A stretch of 31,121 nt of DNA, from the IMG/VR virus record IMGVR_UViG_3300036852_000353, positions 80,435-111,555 of that record; one strand, written 5' to 3'. The notes under the pieces were generated by a model, which saw only the letters and a program-made list of their open reading frames with translations, did not search any database and had not been told where the DNA came from. A program made the translations under genes and the position numbers. Below, piece after piece: positions 2,240-28,005 of the stretch. Position 1 is the first letter of the stretch. The number at the start of each line of letters is the position of its first letter. The DNA comes from a virus.

Positions 2240-2542
2240 TCAGTCGACTGCGTGCAGCGGCACCGTCGCACTGCCGAGCAGCTCCCGGTGGTACGCCTCC
2301 CCCAGCACACCGGCCTCCGGCAGGTCACGCAGCCGGGTCTGACGCAGCATCGGCTGGAAATCCCCCTCGATGATCTCCTTCATCGACTGCGAGGCCTGCC
2401 ACAGACCGGCGTTCATCTGCGACATCCGATAGTCGGGGCGGTCGGGGTCGGCGTGCTTGTCCTCCCATCGCTGGATGGTGGTGAGCACGGCCTCGACGAC
2501 GAGCCGCATGGCTCTCAGCATGGGACGGGGCATGGTCTTCAT
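2240..2542 (-). CDS. Hypothetical protein
   Basis: ATG 2542 preceded by CCGACAAGGAAGG motif; start trimmed from ORF track. Confidence 0.7.
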   Translation of the reverse strand: MKTMPRPMLRAMRLVVEAVLTTIQRWEDKHADPDRPDYRMSQMNAGLWQASQSMKEIIEGDFQPMLRQTRLRDLPEAGVLGEAYHRELLGSATVPLHAVD

Positions 2543-2577
2543 AGGGTGGTTCCCTTCCTTGTCGGTGGTGCGATGTT

Positions 2578-2991
2578 TCACGTGGAACCAGCGATGCGCC
2601 GGAGCTTCTTCAGAGCAGCCCTCGACGTGCTTGTCAGGGCGGACTCCTCGACATCGCCGATCAGCTTCAGCAACGCCCGCGCTTCCTCATACCTCAGCGG
2701 CTTCAGCGGCCGGGGCCCTCGGTTGCCGCCCGAGTGGGAACAGCGCGTTCGCCGGTCACTGAACTCCGGGTCTAGCTCGCTGCGCCACTGCCGGTAGTCG
2801 TCCTGCGCAACGAGGTTGTTCAGAGTGACAGTGACTTCTGCGCCACACAGAAGACAACGCGCTGGCCAGCGGGCGTTTGTGTCGCCGGGGTACTCTGCGG
2901 TGGACGCGTACTCGTTGCGGTCCAGTACTGCGGAACGCTCCGCCTCGCTCAGATCACGTGCGTAGTTGCGTGGCCGGTCAATGTACGCCAC
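2578..2991 (-). CDS. Hypothetical protein, possible Zn-ribbon
   Basis: YPG..WPARCLLCG motif plus distal CSH; stop codon lies inside a parS site. Confidence 0.75.
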   Translation of the reverse strand: MAYIDRPRNYARDLSEAERSAVLDRNEYASTAEYPGDTNARWPARCLLCGAEVTVTLNNLVAQDDYRQWRSELDPEFSDRRTRCSHSGGNRGPRPLKPLRYEEARALLKLIGDVEESALTSTSRAALKKLRRIAGST

Positions 2992-3002
2992 GGTTCTCCT
3001 CT

Positions 3003-3233
3003 CTATGTTTCACGTGGAACATCGACCGGCTCGTTCTTGATGACGATCCGGTGGGTGCGCTGGCCGTCGGCGTACTGCGCCGTGACCAGCAAGTCACCGG
3101 TGCCTGGGTCGTTCTCCATGGACAGAATCTGGCCGCCGGACGTCTCAGGGTGTGCGGACAGTTCGTTGCGGATCTTCGTACGCAGCTCGATGAATGCGTC
3201 TCGGCTGTTCATGAGTTCCTTGTAGGTAGGCAC
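3003..3233 (-). CDS. Hypothetical protein
   Basis: 76-aa ORF ending VPRET (parS-encoded). Confidence 0.75.
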   Translation of the reverse strand: MPTYKELMNSRDAFIELRTKIRNELSAHPETSGGQILSMENDPGTGDLLVTAQYADGQRTHRIVIKNEPVDVPRET

Positions 3234-3394
3234 TACGCCTCGACGATCTCCAGGAAGAACAGCTCGCCGCTACTCTCATCCTCCACGCCGATCACTTCCT
3301 TGACACCCGTGCCGTCGATGGGTGACGCGTTGAGGGTGCTGGTCTCGCGGTTGATGGTGCGGATCAGCAGATCGCGCAGATCGCTCTTGGTCAT
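3233..3394 (-). CDS. Hypothetical protein
   Basis: GAAAGGAA RBS before ATG 3394; stop overlaps next start. Confidence 0.7.
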   Translation of the reverse strand: MTKSDLRDLLIRTINRETSTLNASPIDGTGVKEVIGVEDESSGELFFLEIVEA

Positions 3395-3431
3395 GGTGTT
3401 CCTTTCGGCGGTGGTCTTCCTGGTGGATGTT

Positions 3432-3911
3432 TCACGTGGAACATGGCGCGATGCCGCGCTCGGCACGGAACTCGTTGATGGCCGCGGTGCAGCAGACCGG
3501 CTCGCCGATCACGCTGAGGCCATCCTCCTGCCCGAACTCCGACACCTCGCTGTTGTTCCACAACTCCTCCCACTGGCGATCGCAGTGGGAGCAGTAGTCA
3601 TACCCGTCAGACTCGATGCGCGCCTCGATGACGTTCGGGTGCTGCAGCATGCCGCCGCGCAGCACTTCGCAGCGCTTCTGGTAATCGCCCTCAATGTCAC
3701 GACTGATAAGGCTGTCGCTCATGGAGAGACCCATGCCGACGTCACCGAGGCGTTTCGGCAGGATGGTCAGCTCGAACTGCTGACCCCAGACCAGCCCTTC
3801 GAGGGGGTCGCCCCACGTGTCTTTGAATCCGAGGCTGGCGATGGACATGTGGGTCTTCTGGGGACGCACGACTGCGACGACCTGCCAGTTGTCCCGCTTG
3901 GTTTTCTTCAT
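3432..3911 (-). CDS. Hypothetical protein with CxxC and CC motifs
   Basis: AAGGAG RBS; YCSHC and PVCC motifs; stop within parS. Confidence 0.8.
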   Translation of the reverse strand: MKKTKRDNWQVVAVVRPQKTHMSIASLGFKDTWGDPLEGLVWGQQFELTILPKRLGDVGMGLSMSDSLISRDIEGDYQKRCEVLRGGMLQHPNVIEARIESDGYDYCSHCDRQWEELWNNSEVSEFGQEDGLSVIGEPVCCTAAINEFRAERGIAPCST

Positions 3912-3914
3912 GGA

Positions 3915-4220
3915 TCACTCCTTGGTTTCACGTGGAACATCGCCCTTGCCGTGTGCTGTGGTTGTAGCGGATCCGGCCTTGTACCCGGCCGCCCACATAC
4001 GGGCGAGGAGATCCCGAAGCAGTGCGGCCTTGCTGCCAGGACCGTTGAGCAGGTCCAGCATGAGCGAAGACCGAGTCACTGCCACGGCTGCTGCACACGC
4101 CATCGCGTGGAGTTCATCGCGCTCGACGGGGCAGCCGGGCGGCAAGCTGATCCAGTCCTGGCCGTCCAGCATGGCGTCGAAATAGGAGAAGGCGATGTCA
4201 CCAGCACTTTCCGTGCTCAC
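3915..4220 (-). CDS. Hypothetical protein
   Basis: GTGA overlap with upstream gene; GGAGG RBS; ends VPRETKE. Confidence 0.7.
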   Translation of the reverse strand: MSTESAGDIAFSYFDAMLDGQDWISLPPGCPVERDELHAMACAAAVAVTRSSLMLDLLNGPGSKAALLRDLLARMWAAGYKAGSATTTAHGKGDVPRETKE

Positions 4221-4408
4221 GCTTCCTCCGATGTTTCACGTGGAACATTCGCGGCGCCGTTGCCGACGAGGTGGTTCCAGAACTGTTCGGAGTGGCTGGG
4301 ATCACCGCCGTACTCCGCCCAGGCCTCGACGATGGTGGCCTGCAGCATGGCGACCACCGGGTAGGGCATCTCGGCGGGCGGTATGATGACGGCGGGGATT
4401 TCAGGCAT
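4217..4408 (-). CDS. Hypothetical protein
   Basis: AGGAG RBS directly after parS; ends VPRETSEEA. Confidence 0.7.
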   Translation of the reverse strand: MPEIPAVIIPPAEMPYPVVAMLQATIVEAWAEYGGDPSHSEQFWNHLVGNGAANVPRETSEEA

Positions 4409-4435
4409 GTCGGCTCCTATGTTTCACGTGGAACA

Positions 4436-5251
4436 TCAGCCGATGCTCCGGGCGGCCAGCTCGCGTGCGGCCTCGCGGTAGGCCTTCGCGCCCTTGCCGG
4501 TCGTGTCATAGGTCAGGATCGTCTCGCCGTGGCTGGGCGCTTCGCCCATCTTGGTCGAGCGGGGGATCTTGGCCTCCATGATCTGCTCGGGGAAGTATGC
4601 GCGTACCTCCTTCGCGACCTCCCGGGACAGCCGGATCGACGGGTTGAACATCGTCAGCAGCACCAGGGAGATGCGCAGCTCCTGGTTGAGATGCTGCTGC
4701 ACAGTGCCAATCGTCTTCATCAGCAGGCTGACGCCTTCCAGCGCGTAGTACTCGCACTGGATCGGCATGAGGACCTCCCGCCCAGCCGTCAGCGCGTTGA
4801 CGGTGAGCAGACCCAGGCTCGGTGGGCAGTCGATGAGGATGTAGTCGAACGGCATCTCACTGGCCTCGATGGCGTTCTTCAGCCGGTTCTCCCGGGAGAC
4901 CAGAGAGACCAGCTCGATCTCCGCACCGGCGAGGTCGATGTGGGACGGCACGCAGTAGAGATTCTTCGAGAACGCCGTCTCCTGCATGACGTCGTCCAGC
5001 GGCTTGCTGTCGATGAGGACGTTGTAGACGGACAGCATGTCGTCGCTGTGATGGTCGATCCCGAGTGCGGTGGACGCGTTGCCCTGCGGGTCGAGATCGA
5101 TGATCAGGACGGCGTTGCCGTACTCAGCGAGCGACGCACCGAGGTTGACCGTGCTGGTGGTCTTGCCGACGCCGCCCTTCTGGTTGGCGACGACGAGGAT
5201 GCGGGTCTGCTCCGGGCGCGGCAGGAGGGTGCCGGGGATTCCGGTGGTCAT
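4436..5251 (-). CDS. parA: ParA/Soj-family partition ATPase, chromosomal type
   Basis: Deviant Walker A NQKGGVGKTT, IDLDPQGNAS, Walker B YILIDCPPSLG, PIQCEYYALEG, EAPSHG. Confidence 0.97.
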   Translation of the reverse strand: MTTGIPGTLLPRPEQTRILVVANQKGGVGKTTSTVNLGASLAEYGNAVLIIDLDPQGNASTALGIDHHSDDMLSVYNVLIDSKPLDDVMQETAFSKNLYCVPSHIDLAGAEIELVSLVSRENRLKNAIEASEMPFDYILIDCPPSLGLLTVNALTAGREVLMPIQCEYYALEGVSLLMKTIGTVQQHLNQELRISLVLLTMFNPSIRLSREVAKEVRAYFPEQIMEAKIPRSTKMGEAPSHGETILTYDTTGKGAKAYREAARELAARSIG

Positions 5252-5314
5252 GGTGGTGTCCTTTGCTGGTGGTGATGTTTCACGTGGAACATCGAATGTT
5301 CTGGGCGGCCAGCC

Positions 5315-5626
5315 TCAGCCGACGTAGACGATCGTGTCGGCGCGCATCAGGAACGCGGTGGGGGTCTCGCCCTCGCAGGTGCCCCAGCACTCTTCGTTGC
5401 CAGTGCAGCCATCGGGACAGGAAGGCGCGGCGGCGGAGACGATCTCGACCGTTGTGTCTTCACGTTGTGCCGTGGTCAGGGGGATGAGCCAGTGGTCTTC
5501 GCCGTAGAAGCGGTGGTCATCGACTCCTTCCAGAGCGAAGACCGTCGCGGTCCACGGGGCGGTGGTGCCATCGCCTCCCATCTGGTGGTGGTAGGCGGCG
5601 GTGATCTTTCCGGAGTAGCCGGGCAT
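5315..5626 (-). CDS. Hypothetical protein, Cys-containing
   Basis: GAAAGGAA RBS; CPDGC..CWGTC. Confidence 0.75.
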   Translation of the reverse strand: MPGYSGKITAAYHHQMGGDGTTAPWTATVFALEGVDDHRFYGEDHWLIPLTTAQREDTTVEIVSAAAPSCPDGCTGNEECWGTCEGETPTAFLMRADTIVYVG

Positions 5627-5663
5627 CGTGTTCCTTTCAGTGGTGATGTTTCACGTGGAACAT

Positions 5664-5945
5664 TCAGTTGTCATCGGTGTTCCGGCCGACGAGATTCGAC
5701 AGCAGCTCAATGATCTGGGCCTGGTTGCGGTCGATCTTCGAGTTCAGTTCACGGACCTCATCAGTGAGCCTCCCTACCTTCTGGTCCAGGCTGTCCACCT
5801 TCTGGTCGACGTTGCTCACCTTGAGCTGGAGCGTCGTCAGCTCGCTCTTGATGATCCCGAACTCACGAACGTTCTGTGCCTGAGCCTCTTCGAACCGGCG
5901 AGTCAGCGCAGCGATCTCGGCCTGTGCGATCTCGTCTTCGGGCAT
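5664..5945 (-). CDS. Coiled-coil protein
   Basis: Heptads VDQKVDSLDQKVGRLTDEVRELNSKIDRN; AGGAG RBS. Confidence 0.8.
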   Translation of the reverse strand: MPEDEIAQAEIAALTRRFEEAQAQNVREFGIIKSELTTLQLKVSNVDQKVDSLDQKVGRLTDEVRELNSKIDRNQAQIIELLSNLVGRNTDDN

Positions 5946-5976
5946 GGTGTTCTCCTATGTTTCACGTGGAACATCG

Positions 5977-6162
5977 TCAGTCGTCGGGGTTGCACTGGTG
6001 GCTGTAGACCACCATCCGCGCATCGGACTTGCCGAAGGAACCGAGACCGTGCAGGTCGTAGACCATGCCGGTACGGAACCCGCACGGGGTGTGGATGAGA
6101 TGGACCAGGTGCGGGAAGTAGCCGCCGCCGCTCTCGGCCCGCCAGTCAGGTGGTAGTTGCAT
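5977..6162 (-). CDS. Hypothetical protein
   Basis: GAGGAG RBS; bounded by parS on both sides. Confidence 0.7.
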   Translation of the reverse strand: MQLPPDWRAESGGGYFPHLVHLIHTPCGFRTGMVYDLHGLGSFGKSDARMVVYSHQCNPDD

Positions 6163-6183
6163 GAGTGTCTCCTCGTCGATGTT

Positions 6184-6498
6184 TCACGTGGAACGTTCGC
6201 TGGCCCGCTCCGCCTTCAGTTCCTTCTCGTACTGAGTGAGAGCGGTAGCGTAGGAGTCGAGGCGGCGGCCGACGGCCTGGTTCGTAAGGTCACCACGGCG
6301 CTTCCACCCATCCTGGGTGTGGCAGACGGCGTCCTTGGGTGCGCCTTCCTCCTCTGCCTCTATACAGGCACGGGCGACATAGTCAGCGCGCAGACCGCCA
6401 TCGACCAGATAGGCAACGAGGTAGCGGTAGCCGCGGTGGCGGGCGGGGTTGGTGACGTGCTGGTCGCCGGTCCCATAGGGCGGCTTGAAGGTGGGCAT
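6184..6498 (-). CDS. Hypothetical protein
   Basis: GAGAGGA RBS; stop within parS. Confidence 0.75.
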   Translation of the reverse strand: MPTFKPPYGTGDQHVTNPARHRGYRYLVAYLVDGGLRADYVARACIEAEEEGAPKDAVCHTQDGWKRRGDLTNQAVGRRLDSYATALTQYEKELKAERASERST

Positions 6499-6507
6499 GA
6501 TGTCCTC

Positions 6508-6732
6508 TCAGTCGGTGGATGTTTCACGTGGAACATCGGACAGCTCGCCATCCCCCAGCGTGAAAGCACGTGGAGTACCGGCATTCCAGGCGTCGATGAA
6601 CGGCTGCGCCCTGGCCTGCATGCCATGATGCTTGAACCGGTGGAAAGCCACGCCGTCAGTGCCCACCCAGAAGAGGGTGCCGTCGTACACCCCAGGCTGC
6701 TCCACGCCATAGGCGATCTCGCGCTCAGCCAT
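6508..6732 (-). CDS. Hypothetical protein
   Basis: GGAG RBS before ATG 6732 (MAEREIAY...); ends VPRETSTD. Confidence 0.7.
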   Translation of the reverse strand: MAEREIAYGVEQPGVYDGTLFWVGTDGVAFHRFKHHGMQARAQPFIDAWNAGTPRAFTLGDGELSDVPRETSTD

Positions 6733-7000
6733 CGCCCGGCTCCGATGTTTCACGTGGAACATTGGCGATGGATCGGTCCCAGCCCTCTCGCCAGGGAGAA
6801 GTGCTGGTGTAACCCAGCTCAACAGAGAGCGCTTCGGCGAGATCCGAGACGATGCGGTAGGCATCGTCGGACAGCTCCTCCCACCTCTCGTCGCTCTCGT
6901 CGATCTGCTCGTACTCCGCCTGCTGGCGGTCGGCGTCCCAGTCCACGACTTGCTGAAGTAGGAGGCGGACGGAGGGGGTGAGTTCACCGATCTTGTTCAT
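6725..7000 (-). CDS. Hypothetical acidic protein
   Basis: ATG 7000 (MNKIGEL...); ends VPRETSEPGDG. Confidence 0.7.
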   Translation of the reverse strand: MNKIGELTPSVRLLLQQVVDWDADRQQAEYEQIDESDERWEELSDDAYRIVSDLAEALSVELGYTSTSPWREGWDRSIANVPRETSEPGDG

Positions 7001-7157
7001 GGGCGGTGCTTTCTGTTGGTGTTTCACGTGGAACATCGTTGTCGGGTGGGATGACCAACTTCGGCAGGCGGACGCCAGGGTCCGGAGTAATCAGGCCGAA
7101 GGCCCAGCCCAGGAGGCGGCACCAGTAGTGGGCGATCGCCTCCCTGAGTTCACTCAC
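6984..7157 (-). CDS. Hypothetical protein
   Basis: GGGAGG RBS before GTG 7157; contains VPRET. Confidence 0.6.
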   Translation of the reverse strand: MSELREAIAHYWCRLLGWAFGLITPDPGVRLPKLVIPPDNDVPRETPTESTAHEQDR

Positions 7158-7404
7158 CGGCGCCTCCCGATGTTTCACGTGGAACATCGGCCCGACGGAA
7201 GTACTCCGCCCACACCTCACGTTCCTCGTCCGTCATGGTGGTGTCAGGCTTGCGGTGCAGGAACACCGTGTGGCCGCAGACGCCGCCAACGGTCATGTAG
7301 GTGCAGCCGGGAGCACACTCCATGATCGTGACGTCTTTTGTTTCGTCGCACTCGTCCGCCGGGCAGACTGGCCACGCCTTCCAGGCGTCGAGCGGCTCAC
7401 TCAC
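7150..7404 (-). CDS. Hypothetical Cys-rich protein
   Basis: GGAG RBS before GTG 7404; CPADEC, CAPGC, CGH. Confidence 0.7.
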   Translation of the reverse strand: MSEPLDAWKAWPVCPADECDETKDVTIMECAPGCTYMTVGGVCGHTVFLHRKPDTTMTDEEREVWAEYFRRADVPRETSGGAGE

Positions 7405-7732
7405 CGGCGGACTCCGATGTTTCACGTGGAACATTGCTCTGCTCGCGAAGCGCGTAGTAGAGCCGCTTCGCAGTGGCGTTGTCATTCACGAAGGTGCGCA
7501 GAGCCTGCTGAGCTGCCGGTGTACGGACGCGCTGCTGGTGGGTCCAGAAGAGGGCGAGCGCGATCCCGATGTCCTGCTCGGTCATCTTCACGCGCCACTT
7601 GTGACCGCTGTTATGCGCACGGTGGAGTGGCCCGACGAGGTCAGCGGTCGGCCCCACATGCCTGCTCTCGGGGCTGCTGGTCATGTTGAGCAGGATCTGG
7701 AACTGCCCGGGGGTCAGGCTGATTTCTTCCAT
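7397..7732 (-). CDS. Hypothetical protein
   Basis: AAGGA RBS before ATG 7732; ends VPRETSESAGE. Confidence 0.75.
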   Translation of the reverse strand: MEEISLTPGQFQILLNMTSSPESRHVGPTADLVGPLHRAHNSGHKWRVKMTEQDIGIALALFWTHQQRVRTPAAQQALRTFVNDNATAKRLYYALREQSNVPRETSESAGE

Positions 7733-7757
7733 GGGTGTCCTTGGTAGTGGGGATGTT

Positions 7758-8012
7758 TCACGTGGAACATTCAGGAGCTGGATCCTGATTGTTCCAGTAG
7801 TCGTTGTCCTGGCGGGCAGCTTCCCGCGGGGTGAGGCCGTCCCCCTCGGCGATGCGCTTGCGCTGGACGTAGACGAGGCGTTCGGCCCGGATGTCCTCAT
7901 AGAGGCGCCCCTCCCACCACACGCACATGCTGCATCCGGTGCAGTAGTCGTGATCGTAGGGATCTTCCCAGTCGCCGTACTTCAGGCCATAGGGGTCAAA
8001 GGTTGTGGTCAT
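7758..8012 (-). CDS. Hypothetical protein
   Basis: AAGGAGG RBS; CTGCSMC; stop within parS. Confidence 0.75.
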   Translation of the reverse strand: MTTTFDPYGLKYGDWEDPYDHDYCTGCSMCVWWEGRLYEDIRAERLVYVQRKRIAEGDGLTPREAARQDNDYWNNQDPAPECST

Positions 8013-8734: not shown

Positions 8735-9057
8735 TTCTCCTGCGGCAGACGGACGACGACGTCATAGAACGTGATCTCACGGTCGTCGTCCTCATGGACT
8801 TCAGTGCTGGTCCCTACTGAATCCACCTCGACCCACACGCCAGCTAGGCAGATCTCCTGGCCTTCCCCGAAAGCCATGGGTTGACGGCTCTCGGTCCAGC
8901 CCAGCGACGTGCGCGTCGGCTGACCGTTCGTATCGAAGATCGGGTAGGAGTACTCAGCGAGGTGCGTGTAAGGGTCCGGCGATTCATTCATGAACCTGGA
9001 GTCAGAGATCTTCCTGATGGGATCAGGAAGCTGATCTCGGAAATAGTCCGGCAGCAT
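8731..9057 (-). CDS. Hypothetical protein
   Basis: GGAGG RBS; start uncertain (9057, 9060 or 9072). Confidence 0.7.
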   Translation of the reverse strand: MLPDYFRDQLPDPIRKISDSRFMNESPDPYTHLAEYSYPIFDTNGQPTRTSLGWTESRQPMAFGEGQEICLAGVWVEVDSVGTSTEVHEDDDREITFYDVVVRLPQEK

Positions 9058-9088
9058 CACGCCTCCGTACACCGGCGGTAGCGGGCCA

Positions 9089-9547
9089 TCAGACGCTGTC
9101 CACGATGCGCTGCCAGTCCTCGATCAGCCGGTCCGGCGGCGCTTGCTTTAGGGCGTAGGTCTCGGTGAAACGCTCCAGCAGCTCACGCGACGCGTGCCCA
9201 CGACGGGCATGGATGCCGTGGTTGGGTGCACCACAGGTGCATGCTTCGGGGTTGGTGTGCCGGTAGAAGATGTGGGTGGTGAGATGATGATCCCTGCCGA
9301 CGGATTCGATCTCCACCACGTCGTCCGGGTTCCCGCGCCGGTACCAGAGGTGCCCGGCCTTCGGCTCCACCGGAGCGGAGAGCGCCGTCAGGCGGCCCTC
9401 GATCTTGCCCTGCGACAGGATGGCGTCGAGCATGCCACGCACCACTGACAAGCCGTCGACGTCGTCTACCGTGTCTTCAGTGATCAAGCTCAAGACGTTG
9501 TCGTACAGCTTCTCGGTCCTGAGGTGGCGCTGGATCTGGCCGGTCAT
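9089..9547 (-). CDS. Hypothetical protein
   Basis: AAGGAGG RBS; ATGA overlap. Confidence 0.8.
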   Translation of the reverse strand: MTGQIQRHLRTEKLYDNVLSLITEDTVDDVDGLSVVRGMLDAILSQGKIEGRLTALSAPVEPKAGHLWYRRGNPDDVVEIESVGRDHHLTTHIFYRHTNPEACTCGAPNHGIHARRGHASRELLERFTETYALKQAPPDRLIEDWQRIVDSV

Positions 9548-10100: not shown

Positions 10101-10396
10101 TGCCGTTCCTCCTTCTTCGGCTTGATGATGTCGTCGAGTTCGTGCAGGTTGAGGGGCTCGTAGCCGAGTTCCTTCTCCAGCTCGGCGGTCTTCTGGCGGC
10201 TGGCCTCCAGCTGCCGCTGCCGTTTGGTCTCCGGGTCCACTGTGAACACGGACCAGAAGATCCAGGGCACCATCACGCCCACACCTGTGGCGTAGGCGAT
10301 GGTCAACAGCGGGTTGTTGTGCAGGTGCGGGGTGAAAAGGGAGGACCAGGCGGCTGGCATCACGAGCCAGATTCCCTTGAGGCGGGGGATCTTCAT
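10097..10396 (-). CDS. Small membrane protein
   Basis: Two hydrophobic segments then charged tail; coupled to PadR gene. Confidence 0.75.
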   Translation of the reverse strand: MKIPRLKGIWLVMPAAWSSLFTPHLHNNPLLTIAYATGVGVMVPWIFWSVFTVDPETKRQRQLEASRQKTAELEKELGYEPLNLHELDDIIKPKKEERQ

Positions 10397-10719
10397 GAGG
10401 CCCTCCGCCTCTTGATGTCGGCGCGGTCCTTGACCGTTTCCTGCCGGGCGACGGCCCAGCCCTCGGAAGTGAGGGCGTAGTAGCGCCGGGGCGGCCCGCC
10501 CCGGCTGCGGGGCCTGTAGCTGGGCTGGCCACGGCGTCCCTCCCGTCGCGAGATCAGCCAGCCTGCTTCTTCCAGGCGGTTGAGGATGGGGTATGCGGTG
10601 CCGGGGGCCAGGCCGGTGGCATGGATGACCTGGCGGCCGTACAGCTCGGTGTCCGGGTCGTCGTGGTCCTTGAGGAACGCGGCCAGGACCATGCGGGTTT
10701 GCAGGGTCAGGTTAGGCAT
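10393..10719 (-). CDS. PadR-family winged-helix transcriptional regulator
   Basis: ELYGRQV..GLAPGTAYPILNRLEEAGWL..RRYYALTSEG signature. Confidence 0.9.
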   Translation of the reverse strand: MPNLTLQTRMVLAAFLKDHDDPDTELYGRQVIHATGLAPGTAYPILNRLEEAGWLISRREGRRGQPSYRPRSRGGPPRRYYALTSEGWAVARQETVKDRADIKRRRAS

Positions 10720-13642: not shown

Positions 13643-13658
13643 TGTTTCACGTGGAACA
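13643..13658. repeat. parS: parS site
   Basis: Exact TGTTTCACGTGGAACA, intergenic. Confidence 0.9.
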
Positions 13659-14515: not shown

Positions 14516-14531
14516 TGTTTCACGTGGAACA
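14516..14531. repeat. parS: parS site
   Basis: Exact 16-mer, intergenic. Confidence 0.9.
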
Positions 14532-16567: not shown

Positions 16568-16852
16568 TCAGATACGGCGACGGCGACGTTCTAGAACAAC
16601 CGACCCCTTCGGGACGACATGCGCCCGTGGATCACCGTCCTTCATGTCGATGTAGTCCACCGTCGGACCGGCGCCCCGGCGCGTCTCGCGTTTGCTCCAC
16701 GGCAGTTCCGGGAACGCCTCACGGGCCCGCTTCAGGCGACGCTTGATCGTTCCCACGCTCGTGCCGAACTCATCGGCCAGGGCGAGGAGCGATGCACCGG
16801 CCAGCCAGCGCAGAGCAACATCCTTGGGCGTCAGGTCAGGGCGCTGGGCCAT
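16568..16852 (-). CDS. Helix-turn-helix DNA-binding protein
   Basis: WLAGASLLALADEFGTSVGTIKRRL HTH pattern; GAGGAGG RBS. Confidence 0.8.
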   Translation of the reverse strand: MAQRPDLTPKDVALRWLAGASLLALADEFGTSVGTIKRRLKRAREAFPELPWSKRETRRGAGPTVDYIDMKDGDPRAHVVPKGSVVLERRRRRI

Positions 16853-16869: not shown

Positions 16870-16885
16870 TGTTTCACGTGGAACG
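16870..16885. repeat. parS: parS site
   Basis: TGTTTCACGTGGAACG directly after the stop at 16886. Confidence 0.88.
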
Positions 16886-17969: not shown

Positions 17970-18255
17970 CGCCCCCCTTGCTTTCGAGTGGCTCCCCGAA
18001 CGTCATGACAATGCCGCCTGCGTAGATCTGCTGTGTGATGCGGGTGTGGGCCACGCGGGCCTGATACCTGGGGCGGCTGTCCGTATGGACCTTGCCGTCA
18101 TACAGGTCGCGGGCCACGGCAAACGCCTCGTCGAAGTCGTGGGTCTCGTTGTGCATACGGCCCACCGGCCCCTTGAACACCTGTCCGGTGAACTCCCACC
18201 AGGTGTCATCGCCCAGCTTCTGGTACTGAACGCTGTAAGTGGTCTCGATCTCCAT
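17959..18255 (-). CDS. Hypothetical protein
   Basis: GAAAGGA RBS before ATG 18255. Confidence 0.75.
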   Translation of the reverse strand: MEIETTYSVQYQKLGDDTWWEFTGQVFKGPVGRMHNETHDFDEAFAVARDLYDGKVHTDSRPRYQARVAHTRITQQIYAGGIVMTFGEPLESKGGDDV

Positions 18256-18322
18256 CGTGGTGTCCTTTCGTAGATCCAGAGGGGCCGCCGTGCGCGACGG
18301 GGGCCCGTGCCAGGACCGGCGA

Positions 18323-18338
18323 TGTTTCACGTGGAACA
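18323..18338. repeat. parS: parS site
   Basis: Exact 16-mer just after the stop at 18340. Confidence 0.9.
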
Positions 18339-18339
18339 T

Positions 18340-18783
18340 TCAGGTCGTGCGAGTGAGGAACGCGTACTGCCCGCTCCCCGGCCTGGCGAAGACGTACACC
18401 GCGCCGTTGGCCTCGACCATCAGCTCGTCCTCGCCAACCATGCCGTCCCACACAGGGGCGTCATCCTTGAACCACTCGACCTCGGTGCCCGGGTAGTTCT
18501 CCTTGATGTACTGCTCCTTGAGCATGTCAAGGTCTGCGTAGGCGCACATGAACGCCCTCGCCAGATCAATGAACGCGTCCGGCTCCCAGCTTCTCCATGC
18601 CACGGAAGCGGCCTCGATGGCTGCCGCCACCACACCTTCATTCCCGTCGACCTGCTCGACATCCATGTACACCTTGAGTATGGCCGCTTCGAGGTCGTAC
18701 TCCGGTTCGTGCTCTGTCCACCCGCCGCCCGAGACGTTCCGGAACGCCTGACGCCAGTGGTCGGCGGTGTAGTCGTCGGTCAT
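18340..18783 (-). CDS. Acidic hypothetical protein, paralog of 13140-13619 (possibly ArdA-like)
   Basis: GAGAGGA RBS before ATG 18783; shared motifs with 13140-13619. Confidence 0.78.
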   Translation of the reverse strand: MTDDYTADHWRQAFRNVSGGGWTEHEPEYDLEAAILKVYMDVEQVDGNEGVVAAAIEAASVAWRSWEPDAFIDLARAFMCAYADLDMLKEQYIKENYPGTEVEWFKDDAPVWDGMVGEDELMVEANGAVYVFARPGSGQYAFLTRTT

Positions 18784-18801
18784 GGTCGTATCCTCTCTCG
18801 A

Positions 18802-18817
18802 TGTTTCATGCGGGATG
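18802..18817. repeat. Degenerate parS site
   Basis: TGTTTCATGCGGGATG, 11/16 match; same orientation, junction position and CTCTCGA flank as the site at 16870. Confidence 0.55.
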
Positions 18818-18818
18818 C

Positions 18819-19250
18819 TCAGGCCCGGTACAGACCCAGGCACCAGTCGTTGACCGCCTCGGCATACACCCTGACAGGCCAGGATACGGCTGCGTCCTGG
18901 GTGACGTGCCAGGGCCAGCTCTTCAGACCCGTCAGGGCGATGGCCCATCCGTCGCAGTGAAAGCCGGGTTCGTACAACTTCATCTCGTCCGACCATCCGG
19001 AACCGGCCCGCAGGGCAACCCAGTCCTTGGCGATCTTCAGACAGGCCTCGGCCTGCTCGCGGGTCAGCTGCGGGGTCTCGTCCTCGCTCACAGGAGTTCC
19101 TTCCTGATCTTCTAGTTCCTCGCGGACGGCGTCCATGGCCGCCTCCAGCCCGTCGTCCCAGCCGGAACGGTAGTGATCCGAGCCGTCGGGCGGCGGGCTC
19201 TTGAGGGCAAAGATGGCGCGGGTGAGGCGCTTGATCAGCTCCTCGTTCAC
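18819..19250 (-). CDS. Hypothetical protein (possibly two fused modules)
   Basis: GGAGG RBS; GTGA overlap; internal AGGAAGGAA before VSEDET. Confidence 0.7.
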   Translation of the reverse strand: MNEELIKRLTRAIFALKSPPPDGSDHYRSGWDDGLEAAMDAVREELEDQEGTPVSEDETPQLTREQAEACLKIAKDWVALRAGSGWSDEMKLYEPGFHCDGWAIALTGLKSWPWHVTQDAAVSWPVRVYAEAVNDWCLGLYRA

Positions 19251-23741: not shown

Positions 23742-23912
23742 TCATCCGGGTGCCCACAGCCACCCGGTAACACAGATGACGGCCAGGACGGCAACGACGA
23801 TTGTGCTGTAGATCTGCACGTCGGTGGGCTCCGTCTTGCAGACCTTCATCCATGCCCACCGCACCAGGAGCAGGGGCGGGCTCACGACGGCCAGAAAAAC
23901 GACCATCCACAT
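23742..23912 (-). CDS. Small two-TM membrane protein
   Basis: GGGAG RBS; TGATG coupling; two hydrophobic segments. Confidence 0.7.
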   Translation of the reverse strand: MWMVVFLAVVSPPLLLVRWAWMKVCKTEPTDVQIYSTIVVAVLAVICVTGWLWAPG

Positions 23913-24214
23913 CAGTCGACGTCTCCCGACGCAATGTCGGTATTGCGGGCGTCGATCCACACCCCGGCTCGTTCGGCCAGCCACTCGCGGGTGACATCCT
24001 CGGGTCGCATGCCCTCAACGTTGAGGTCGATCAAGAACGGCCAGTCGTCTCGGCTGACCCGGTCCCCGACCGGGATCACGCGGTTCTCGTCCACGAACAT
24101 CTCGCGGATGTAGATGTAGCCGCTGCCCCAGTAGGCGAACTGCCAGATGGCGCCCCGACTGTCGGGGAGCGCAGCCGTGGCGGGGCTGGCCGGTGTGTAC
24201 GTGCTCATGATCAC
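23912..24214 (-). CDS. Hypothetical protein
   Basis: GGAG RBS; coupled. Confidence 0.75.
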   Translation of the reverse strand: MIMSTYTPASPATAALPDSRGAIWQFAYWGSGYIYIREMFVDENRVIPVGDRVSRDDWPFLIDLNVEGMRPEDVTREWLAERAGVWIDARNTDIASGDVD

Positions 24215-24831
24215 TCCGCGGGGTCGTCGGTGAGCGGGACCAGGTCCAGCACGGCGGGCGGGAGCGCAACAGCCAGCTTCGCGGCCTCACTGCCCGCCTT
24301 CAGGGCGCGGGCGTCGTGCCCCTCGGCCTCGGCACGCAGAGCGGCGGCCTTGCCCTCCTCGCTGGCCTGCATGCCCCGGTGGTACAGGTAGCGGCTCAGA
24401 TCCATCCAGCCGGGCGTCTGCACGTCGAAGGTGTCCAGCGCCCGGACGGTCTCCTCCCACATCAGATTGAACGTCTTGGTGTGCCGGTCGACGGGGCCGC
24501 GCCGGTCGTTGCGGAACCCGCCCCCGAAGGGGACGTAGCCGTCCCGGTGCCAGCGCCCCTCCCGATAACCATTCGCGTACTCGATGTGCGTGCGGTCCTC
24601 GAAGAAGACCTTGTAGTGCACGGCGTAGGCACGCCCGCGGATCGTCCAGTGATCGGCAGCGTCCGGGTCGGCCTCGAACGCGGGATCGGACGCCACACGC
24701 AGCATGGGCCGCAGGTCGGTGACGTTGCCGCGCTCGGTGTCGTGGTAGCTGTACGGATCGGCCTGCTCCACCGCGATGTACAGCGGGCCGTACAGGGTGG
24801 CGAATGTGACGGGGGTGGTGATGGTTTTCAT
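24211..24831 (-). CDS. Hypothetical protein (206 aa)
   Basis: GAGAGGA RBS. Confidence 0.85.
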   Translation of the reverse strand: MKTITTPVTFATLYGPLYIAVEQADPYSYHDTERGNVTDLRPMLRVASDPAFEADPDAADHWTIRGRAYAVHYKVFFEDRTHIEYANGYREGRWHRDGYVPFGGGFRNDRRGPVDRHTKTFNLMWEETVRALDTFDVQTPGWMDLSRYLYHRGMQASEEGKAAALRAEAEGHDARALKAGSEAAKLAVALPPAVLDLVPLTDDPAE

Positions 24832-27695: not shown

Positions 27696-28005
27696 TGTTC
27701 CGACCCCCATCCTGTTGTGTTCCGAGTGAGGATGTCGAGGTCGGAACAGTGTTTTCCCAGGTCACAGGGTGTTTGTTCCGAGTGTTCCGAGTGTTCCGAG
27801 TGGAAACGAAGGCAATGCGTGAGAAGGGGTCAGATAACAGATAGGTAACGGTAACGAATAGGTAACGCACGCATGCGCACGTATAAGGAACCTAGAGATT
27901 GGTCGGAACACCCGGAAACCTCGGAACACAGGTGGGGTGACCTGCGCAGATGGTGTTCCGACTTACCTGTTCCGACCCCGGAACAGGGTCGGGTACCTCG
28001 GAACA
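27696..28005. repeat. Iteron-like octamer cluster, putative replication origin
   Basis: TGTTCCGA at 27696, 27718, 27774, 27783, 27792, 27954, 27968; TCGGAACA at 27741, 27903, 27921, 27998; CCGGAACA at 27978; A-rich central spacer with GGTAACG x3. Confidence 0.7.

Follow-up and report, generated by a model that had tools for sequence, protein, structure and literature searches.

Introduction

The capture of a foreign ParB by means of centromere copies is a known kind of mechanism, as phage phi29 and the mobile element SGI1 illustrate. Host Spo0J binds five parS sites of phi29 and helps to bring the phage DNA into the prespore (Meijer et al. 2005, cited in PMC2731898). SGI1 carries two mimics of the IncC parS, uses the plasmid ParAB for its own partition, and destabilizes the plasmid (PMC10954446). 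Extrachromosomal prophages, such as those of cluster A mycobacteriophages, are described in PMC7157519 as having a complete ParA-ParB pair with its own adjacent parS, and ParB-like proteins that lack the cytidine triphosphate (CTP) hydrolase occur in actinomycetes, for example ParT of SCP2 (PMC12260392). Here, we analyze a 31,121-nucleotide stretch of viral DNA (hereafter the window; positions 80,435 to 111,555 of IMG/VR record IMGVR_UViG_3300036852_000353), in which copies of a chromosomal-type parS site punctuate a block of small genes that includes a parA gene. The window is the final 31 kb of a complete, circularly assembled virus record of 111,555 bp with a 127-bp terminal overlap and 64.6% GC, and the phage that it belongs to is called G000 below.

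Results

parS copies stand at almost every junction of a gene block

We searched the window with the query TGTTTCACGTGGAACA, allowing up to two mismatches, and took the chance level from 100 dinucleotide-preserving shuffles. The search gave 20 copies, which read TGTTCCACGTGAAACA on the gene strand, while the shuffles expected 0.00. These 20 copies are the only ones in the whole 111,555-bp genome, and all of them lie inside 15.8 kb. Sixteen are packed into positions 2574-7769 at an average density of one per 325 bp, 13 of them exact and three (2574, 3924, and 6180) with a single mismatch at an outermost base, and a further four lie outside this core array (13643, 14516, 16870, and 18323). The genes of the region are on the minus strand. 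According to our gene model, which is based on codon bias and the sequence itself, positions 2240-8012 are filled by 18 consecutive small genes, and parS occupies 16 of the 17 junctions between them, the exception being the overlapping junction at 3233. The orientation is identical for all 20 sites, and in 18 cases 11-33 nt separate the end of the site from the following start codon, a gap that usually contains a GGAG-type ribosome-binding site.

These results agree with the first-pass annotation of this DNA, which had reported 16 copies in 5.2 kb, located at 16 of the 17 junctions among 18 genes with that at 3233 excepted and uniformly oriented relative to transcription; its coordinates were correct. 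It had also stated that the sites never lie within a gene. The sites are indeed at junctions, but about eight of those in the window run into the 3' end of the upstream open reading frame (ORF), where the frame always reads (D/N)VPRETS, and at four sites the upstream gene stops at the TGA that the motif contains.

The motif is identical to the chromosomal parS of some actinomycetes

The motif is a 16-bp near-palindrome that matches the chromosomal consensus TGTTNCACGTGAAACA letter for letter. Most sites near parAB in four Streptomyces genomes have the perfectly palindromic sequence TGTTTCACGTGAAACA, and a few are C variants. All seven chromosomal sites of Actinotalea solisilvae, which cluster at parAB, are exactly the C variant of the phage, and Kineococcus vitellinus also uses the C variant, with three sites at parAB. 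The exact consensus match and the native use at actinomycete parAB uphold the earlier assignment of the motif to the consensus bound by chromosomal ParB/Spo0J. Judged by its sequence, the phage site is a genuine centromere variant that some actinomycetes use natively. The six published actinomycete genomes that we searched have 7-13 near-consensus parS sites per chromosome, compared with 20 in this phage and 15-32 across its clade. A role of the motif as a sigma-70-type promoter or an intrinsic terminator was rejected, because a promoter and terminator scan gave no excess and no overlap with the motif.

The array is conserved in a clade of four phages

The clade consists of G000 and three uncultured phages, whose primases are 44-72% and whose portal proteins are 68-79% identical. 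The first-pass annotation had proposed looking for the same architecture in related phages, and junction arrays are present in all three relatives, with 15, 24, and 32 copies (Table 1). The 14-bp core GTT(C/T)CACGTGAAAC is invariant at 91 of 91 sites in the four phages, with T at the asymmetric position in four of them, and mismatches are confined to the outermost bases. The order and content of the intervening genes are shuffled from phage to phage, and the ortholog pairs adjacent to sites show a median amino-acid identity of 51%. An invariant core among diverged and shuffled genes argues strongly that the site is under selection or is continuously homogenized. The upstream site is common to 24 of 56 ortholog pairs and the downstream site to 4 of 35, indicating that a site tends to travel with the gene that it precedes, as a module of parS, ribosome-binding site, and gene. 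None of 17 smaller portal relatives, which measure 24-58 kb and include five that are at least 91% complete, has a site; portal identity is 53-57% in the larger records and 67-76% in three fragments. This distribution makes the array a trait of the clade with large genomes.

Table 1. Size, parS content, and ParA of the four phages
Phage	Genome (kb)	parS sites	Orientation	ParA
G000	111.6	20	all sense	yes
G001	116.7	24, plus 2 degenerate	23 sense, 1 palindrome	yes
G006	104.3	32	all sense	yes
G406	102.4	15	10 sense, 3 antisense, 2 palindromes	no

The sites also have a coding side in these phages. About 46 of 88 sense sites encode the C-terminal end of the upstream protein, almost always through the same frame, for example as ...(D/N)VPRETS followed by a few acidic residues, and 18 sites supply the stop codon through the TGA of the motif (...CST*). 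Dozens of unrelated early proteins end in this common VPRETS tail.

Multi-copy arrays were seen outside the clade as well. Low-GC viral contigs (36-39% GC; IMGVR_UViG_3300038443_000757, L147, L167, and L187) carry 5-7 host-type parS cores within 6-14 kb, and the first of them, a contig of 169 kb, has seven sites in 6.4 kb. Neither ParA nor ParB was found within the stretches of these contigs that were looked at. Multiple copies of host parS on phages are thus not confined to actinophages.

The orientation bias is strong, and G406 departs from it

In G000, G001, and G006 together, 75 of 76 sites are sense and one is a palindrome. G406 has three reversed and two perfectly palindromic sites at junctions, besides 10 sense sites. 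These reversed and palindromic copies would fit a symmetric dimeric binder and appear to weaken an orientation-dependent mechanism of the stoperator type; the analogy to oriented stoperators drawn in the first-pass annotation does not hold as a rule. The bias may come from common descent of the modules of parS, ribosome-binding site, and gene. It could also come from RNA folding, in which the C.A mismatch of the sense orientation would weaken a hairpin beside the ribosome-binding site. The predicted mRNA hairpin energy is -5.8 kcal/mol for the sense site, -9.8 kcal/mol for the mirrored variant with its G.U wobble, and -10.3 kcal/mol for the perfect palindrome, and the mean energy difference in 75 native contexts is about 2.7 kcal/mol.

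A chromosomal-type ParA accompanies the array, and no ParB was detected

The ParA encoded in the window is a deviant Walker-A ATPase that matches PF13614 with full profile coverage (E-value 3e-61). ParA is present in three of the four phages (G000, G001, and G006), with 66-69% mutual identity. The three proteins group as one clade (SH-aLRT 98) nested among the chromosomal ParAs of class Actinomycetes, and their best identities, 61-63%, are to Streptomyces ParA. The Walker A, DLDPQGN, DCPPSLG, and IPR motifs are intact in the alignment. The G006 protein (L298, 2849-3646, minus strand) has KGGVAKT in Walker A rather than KGGVGKT, which fits the deviant pattern and is the sole change in an otherwise invariant block.

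The ParB_N model PF02195 gave no match in the six frames of G000, even at an E-value of up to 1. A tblastn search of all four phages with six actinomycete ParBs reached a best E-value of 0.25, and hhalign comparison of six selected early-protein families, four of which occur in all four phages, with ParB gave less than 1% probability. Two candidates were rejected: a weak ParB_N match in G001 (E-value 0.018), since Pfam finds nothing in that ORF, and the parA-linked 63-aa ORF as a centromere-binding protein, which is acidic and whose only basic residue comes from a parS-encoded tail. The scan of the full element for parB and parS suggested in the first-pass annotation therefore yielded no ParB in G000 or in the three relatives, and no parS copies beyond the 20 in the window. 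An element-encoded binder, which was seen there as speaking against the use of host ParB, was not found in the form of a ParB, but helix-turn-helix (HTH) proteins conserved in the clade remain candidate binders. The predicted complex of a phage ParA dimer with adenosine triphosphate and the N-terminal 40 residues of an actinomycete ParB scored 0.00, which weighs neither way.

HTH proteins and iterons

The HTH protein candidates for a phage-encoded binder are a Cro/CI-type HTH_3 protein, a PadR-like protein, and a small HTH protein. The Cro/CI-type protein (G000 23841-24308, minus strand), a candidate repressor by its family, is kept in all four phages and lies antisense between the terminase and portal genes. 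The PadR-like winged-helix protein (window 10393-10719, minus strand; PF03551, E-value 2.5e-8) has homologs in G001 and G006 and was not detected in G406. PadR operators have the form ATGT-N8-ACAT, and the spacing of the extended motif here is ATGT-N10-ACAT. The gene of the small HTH protein (16568-16852) has a parS site directly upstream.

A protein with ribbon-helix-helix and winged-helix domains adjoins a cluster of iterons. This cluster (window 27696-28005) contains TGTTCCGA 11 times in G000 and likewise in G006 (around 52,700-53,400), and that of G001 (around 8,900-9,400) contains GTGTTCCG 10 times. The iteron core TGTTCC is identical to the half-site of the phage parS in its C variant. 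G406, which has no ParA either, lacks the cluster. Cross-talk of parS with the origin-binding protein is conceivable.

The phage and its other genes

The element is a large siphovirus-type actinophage from soil, and its host is probably an actinomycete, as inferred from sequence. The portal protein is 46.6% identical to that of Streptomyces phage Dagobah (best match), the best primase match among cultured phages is 35% (phage Yara), and an ORF of tape-measure size has 1,192 aa. A D5-type primase-helicase is encoded directly downstream of the array, and an SF1 helicase, a family A DNA polymerase, an SNF2 helicase, and a PD-(D/E)XK nuclease are also encoded. A tyrosine recombinase (PF00589, E-value 4e-11; G000 18074-19006, minus strand), kept in G001 (84%) and G006 (67%), could be an integrase or, in a plasmid-like prophage, an enzyme that resolves dimers.

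Small genes without a Pfam family form a very long leftward block, and the array makes up its promoter-proximal part (Table 2). Because small genes without Pfam families are the usual look of early genes, we regard the array block as early. Pfam assigned no family to 17 of the 18 array genes, PHROGs matched them to function-less families only, and Protein Data Bank sequence searches with the HTH gene and with an array gene kept in all four phages returned nothing useful. Megablast of the array against GenBank phages gave no match, the phage has no close cultured relative, and no similar array was present in the cultured phages and plasmids of the collections searched. The plasmid collection gave ParA genes and one small gene in common with Streptomyces plasmids, with no comparable array. 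The 93-aa coiled-coil array gene at 5664-5945 (minus strand) has homologs of about 70-73% at the DNA level on Streptomyces plasmids (S. goshikiensis and S. antimycoticus), a hint of a gene pool common to the phage and Streptomyces. A protein with a Tad2-like (Thoeris anti-defense 2) domain (PF11195, E-value 1.4e-7; G000 6696-6944, minus strand) is kept in all four phages.

Table 2. Features of the parS array in window coordinates
Feature	Position	Strand	Basis
parS, gene-strand sequence GGTTCCACGTGAAACA; the upstream ORF stops at its TGA	2574..2589	-	site search, gene model
parS, exact	3006..3021	-	site search, gene model
parS, exact; TGA is the upstream stop	3428..3443	-	site search, gene model
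parS, one outer-base mismatch	3924..3939	-	site search, gene model
parS, exact; encodes the ...NVPRETSEEA tail of the 63-aa ORF	4232..4247	-	site search, sequence, gene model
parS, exact, directly past the parA stop codon	4420..4435	-	site search, gene model
Soj-type ParA ATPase, 271 aa; Walker A KGGVGKT, DLDPQGN, DCPPSLG, and IPR motifs intact	4436..5251	-	PF13614 E-value 3e-61, alignment, tree
parS, exact; parA start 24 nt downstream	5276..5291	-	site search, gene model
parS, exact	5647..5662	-	site search, gene model
parS, exact	5958..5973	-	site search, gene model
parS, one outer-base mismatch; TGA is the upstream stop	6180..6195	-	site search, gene model
parS, exact	6520..6535	-	site search, gene model
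parS, exact	6746..6761	-	site search, gene model
parS, exact; ATG at 7000 lies 19 nt downstream	7020..7035	-	site search, sequence
parS, exact; GTG at 7157 lies 13 nt downstream	7171..7186	-	site search, sequence
parS, exact	7418..7433	-	site search, gene model
parS, exact; TGA is the upstream stop	7754..7769	-	site search, gene model
Outlying parS, exact; gene start 23 nt downstream	13643..13658	-	site search, gene model
Outlying parS, exact	14516..14531	-	site search, gene model
Outlying parS, one outer-base mismatch; small HTH gene 16568-16852 starts 17 nt downstream	16870..16885	-	site search, gene model
Outlying parS, exact	18323..18338	-	site search, gene model
Array of 18 small early genes (ParA and 17 without a Pfam family), one leftward block upstream of the D5-type primase-helicase	2240..8012	-	gene model, Pfam

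Discussion

ParB is a CTP-dependent sliding clamp. The repeats described here appear to be genuine chromosomal-type parS, and since parS is present in a phage without a detectable ParB, the host ParB is the likely loader. We favor a reading in which the phage genome is segregated by, or hitch-hikes on, a partition complex of host ParB, with a probability of roughly 0.5, over ParB titration, transcriptional gating, a phage operator, and a recombination linker. Host ParB would load at the 20 phage parS sites, spread, and bridge, so that about 16 kb of the early region would become a single large partition complex, no poorer in sites than that of a host chromosome. The complex would be positioned and segregated by the Soj-type ParA of the phage, or by the host ParA in the relative that lacks one. 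The phage genome would then be distributed like a chromosome, either carried like a plasmid in multigenomic hyphae or hitch-hiking into spore compartments in the way that phi29 uses Spo0J. Junctions would hold the sites because no other place in the densely packed early operon tolerates a rigid sequence of 16-22 bp, and the sites would tend to move with the downstream gene in the module described above. Sequence and comparative evidence argues well for host-type parS and for a probable recruitment of host ParB to the array; that the phage ParA cooperates with host ParB, and what purpose this would serve, we infer. The idea of a "super-centromere" built from the host motif, put forward in the first-pass annotation, is in our view still the best reading, given the parS identity, the absence of a detected ParB, and the strong selection on the array, but a phage HTH protein remains a candidate for the binder.

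A more specific proposal is tentative. The clade might have a partition system without a ParB, in which host ParB replaces the centromere-binding protein, the centromere is denser than that of the host, and a captured chromosomal ParA is kept. The ParB coat on the early operon might then act as a developmental switch: a rise of ParB in sporulating hyphae would damp the early genes and take the genome into spores, and the phage would otherwise be lytic.

Several observations weigh against the partition reading. In the four phages, 85 of 88 asymmetric sites are sense, and a symmetric ParB needs no such bias. The conserved palindrome reaches about 22 bp (cgATGTT...AACATcg), past the canonical 16 bp, with weaker conservation in the outer part. 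Occupation of 16 of 17 junctions far exceeds the need of a centromere and hints at a role per gene, which may be ParB roadblocking or silencing; the sites may also have a structural role as recombination boundaries. The array is present in G406, where ParA was not found, so ParA is not essential to it, and the ParA tree leaves the placement of the phage proteins within class Actinomycetes unsettled. A ParT-like protein on the phage could escape sequence searches. A primase search of 401 Streptomyces genomes gave D5-like matches of at most 53%, most of them near 40%, and no prophage of the clade. Finally, the HTH proteins conserved in the clade offer a phage-encoded alternative to host ParB.

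It is rather unlikely that the array serves as a ParB sink, in which the replicated sites titrate host ParB off the oriC-proximal parS and disturb the segrosome, the loading of the structural maintenance of chromosomes (SMC) complex, and sporulation-linked segregation, while the phage ParA interferes with the host ParA. The numbers would suit it, with 15-32 near-perfect sites per phage genome versus 7-13 per actinomycete chromosome searched, and extra parS copies of SGI1 destabilize the helper plasmid through ParB titration (PMC10954446). The position of the array among small genes of an early, host-takeover type also fits. However, an intact DNA-binding ParA in three of the four phages better fits active positioning than passive titration. 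parB-null Streptomyces strains are viable and still sporulate, which makes the gain for the phage less evident.

We consider it unlikely that the array acts as a transcriptional gate, in which ParB at each junction roadblocks or silences the early operon when it is abundant, for example in sporulating hyphae, so that the lytic programme is deferred, with or without partition. The location of parS 11-33 nt upstream of nearly every start codon, the strong co-orientation bias, and the retention of the site with the downstream gene in 24 of 56 ortholog pairs versus 4 of 35 for the upstream gene are consistent with a gate. A comparable pairing of host-factor repression (Spo0A) with parS/Spo0J is reported for phi29 (PMC2731898). 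The lack of a promoter or terminator excess makes the block look polycistronic, and a single roadblock would hit all downstream genes. Silencing by chromosomal ParB is generally mild, however, and G406 has its three reversed and two palindromic sites. In addition, the orientation bias may be explained more simply by the weakened mRNA hairpin (-5.8 versus about -10 kcal/mol) or by common descent.

The stoperators of phage L5, asymmetric 13-mers scattered across the genome, are binding sites of the phage repressor. A phage operator of this kind, or like the conserved inverted repeats of phiC31, in which a phage-encoded dimeric regulator binds the palindrome of 18-22 bp and the likeness to parS is secondary or mimicry, is improbable here. 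The clade-conserved HTH proteins, the conservation beyond the 16-bp parS to the extended palindrome given above, and a junction placement and orientation bias that resemble stoperators speak for it. Against it, the 14/14 invariant match to the universal parS core is beyond chance, and such sites would attract host ParB in any case. No PadR-like gene was detected in G406, none of the candidates resembles ParB by hhalign, and the sites are confined to 16 kb of the 111 kb rather than genome-wide like stoperators.

Least probable is that the identical direct repeats are mainly short homology boundaries for the exchange, duplication, or deletion of single-gene cassettes between co-infecting relatives, integron-like but without attC: the shuffled gene order and content of the array, with 18-22 bp kept at every boundary, and the tendency of a site to move with its downstream gene agree with this, but it leaves the exact host parS sequence and the never-drifting core unexplained, and such recombination is probably a by-product that aids array growth rather than the selected function.

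If host ParB loads on the array, this would be the most extreme known viral borrowing of bacterial chromosome-segregation machinery, and ParA and parS would be heritable as a working pair without ParB. The array would offer a natural, compact "super-parS" on which the loading and sliding of ParB, its collisions with transcription, and the recruitment of SMC could be studied, and it would hint at a route by which phages of sporulating, multigenomic actinomycetes persist through dormancy. It is also a case of a functional DNA site that doubles as gene-cassette boundary, stop codon, and common C-terminal peptide.

Host-type parS on a phage had been presented in the first-pass annotation as a departure from the unrelated centromeres that phage par systems normally use, but phi29 (PMC2731898) and the mimicry by SGI1 (PMC10954446) are precedents. 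Phages phi29 and Nf resemble the present clade in that they have no ParB of their own and carry copies of the host chromosomal parS; these copies recruit the host ParB homolog, so that the segregation machinery of the chromosome moves the phage genome (PMC2731898). Phage phi29 has five scattered sites and no ParA, whereas the present phages have 15-32 sites, one at almost every junction of the early array, and a Soj-type ParA in three of four. The host of phi29 is Bacillus, and that of the present clade is probably an actinomycete. SGI1 is likewise a mobile element without a full Par system that carries centromere copies of another replicon (PMC10954446), but it has two mimics of a plasmid parS, whereas here the parS is chromosomal, the array is dense, and the element has its own ParA. 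The ParA-ParT-parS system of SCP2 is similar as an actinomycete system that departs from the rule of ParA plus a ParB CTPase (PMC12260392). It differs in having its own ParT and its own 18-bp site, and no ParT-like or ParB-like protein was found here. The parABS systems of cluster A phages are similar as partition functions on actinophages, there for plasmid-like maintenance, but here no ParB was found and the parS is that of the host chromosome. The array resembles the L5 stoperators in that a single short site recurs many times in small intergenic gaps and mostly keeps one orientation relative to transcription. It differs from them in that the site is a near-palindrome equal to parS, is restricted to the early region, is reversed in 3 of the 13 asymmetric sites of G406, and has no known cognate repressor. 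What is new here is the density of the sites (15-32, one per gene junction), the conservation of the array across a phage clade, the pairing of a captured chromosomal-type ParA with the array and no ParB, and the weaving of the site into genes as stop codon, common C-terminal tail, and cassette boundary.

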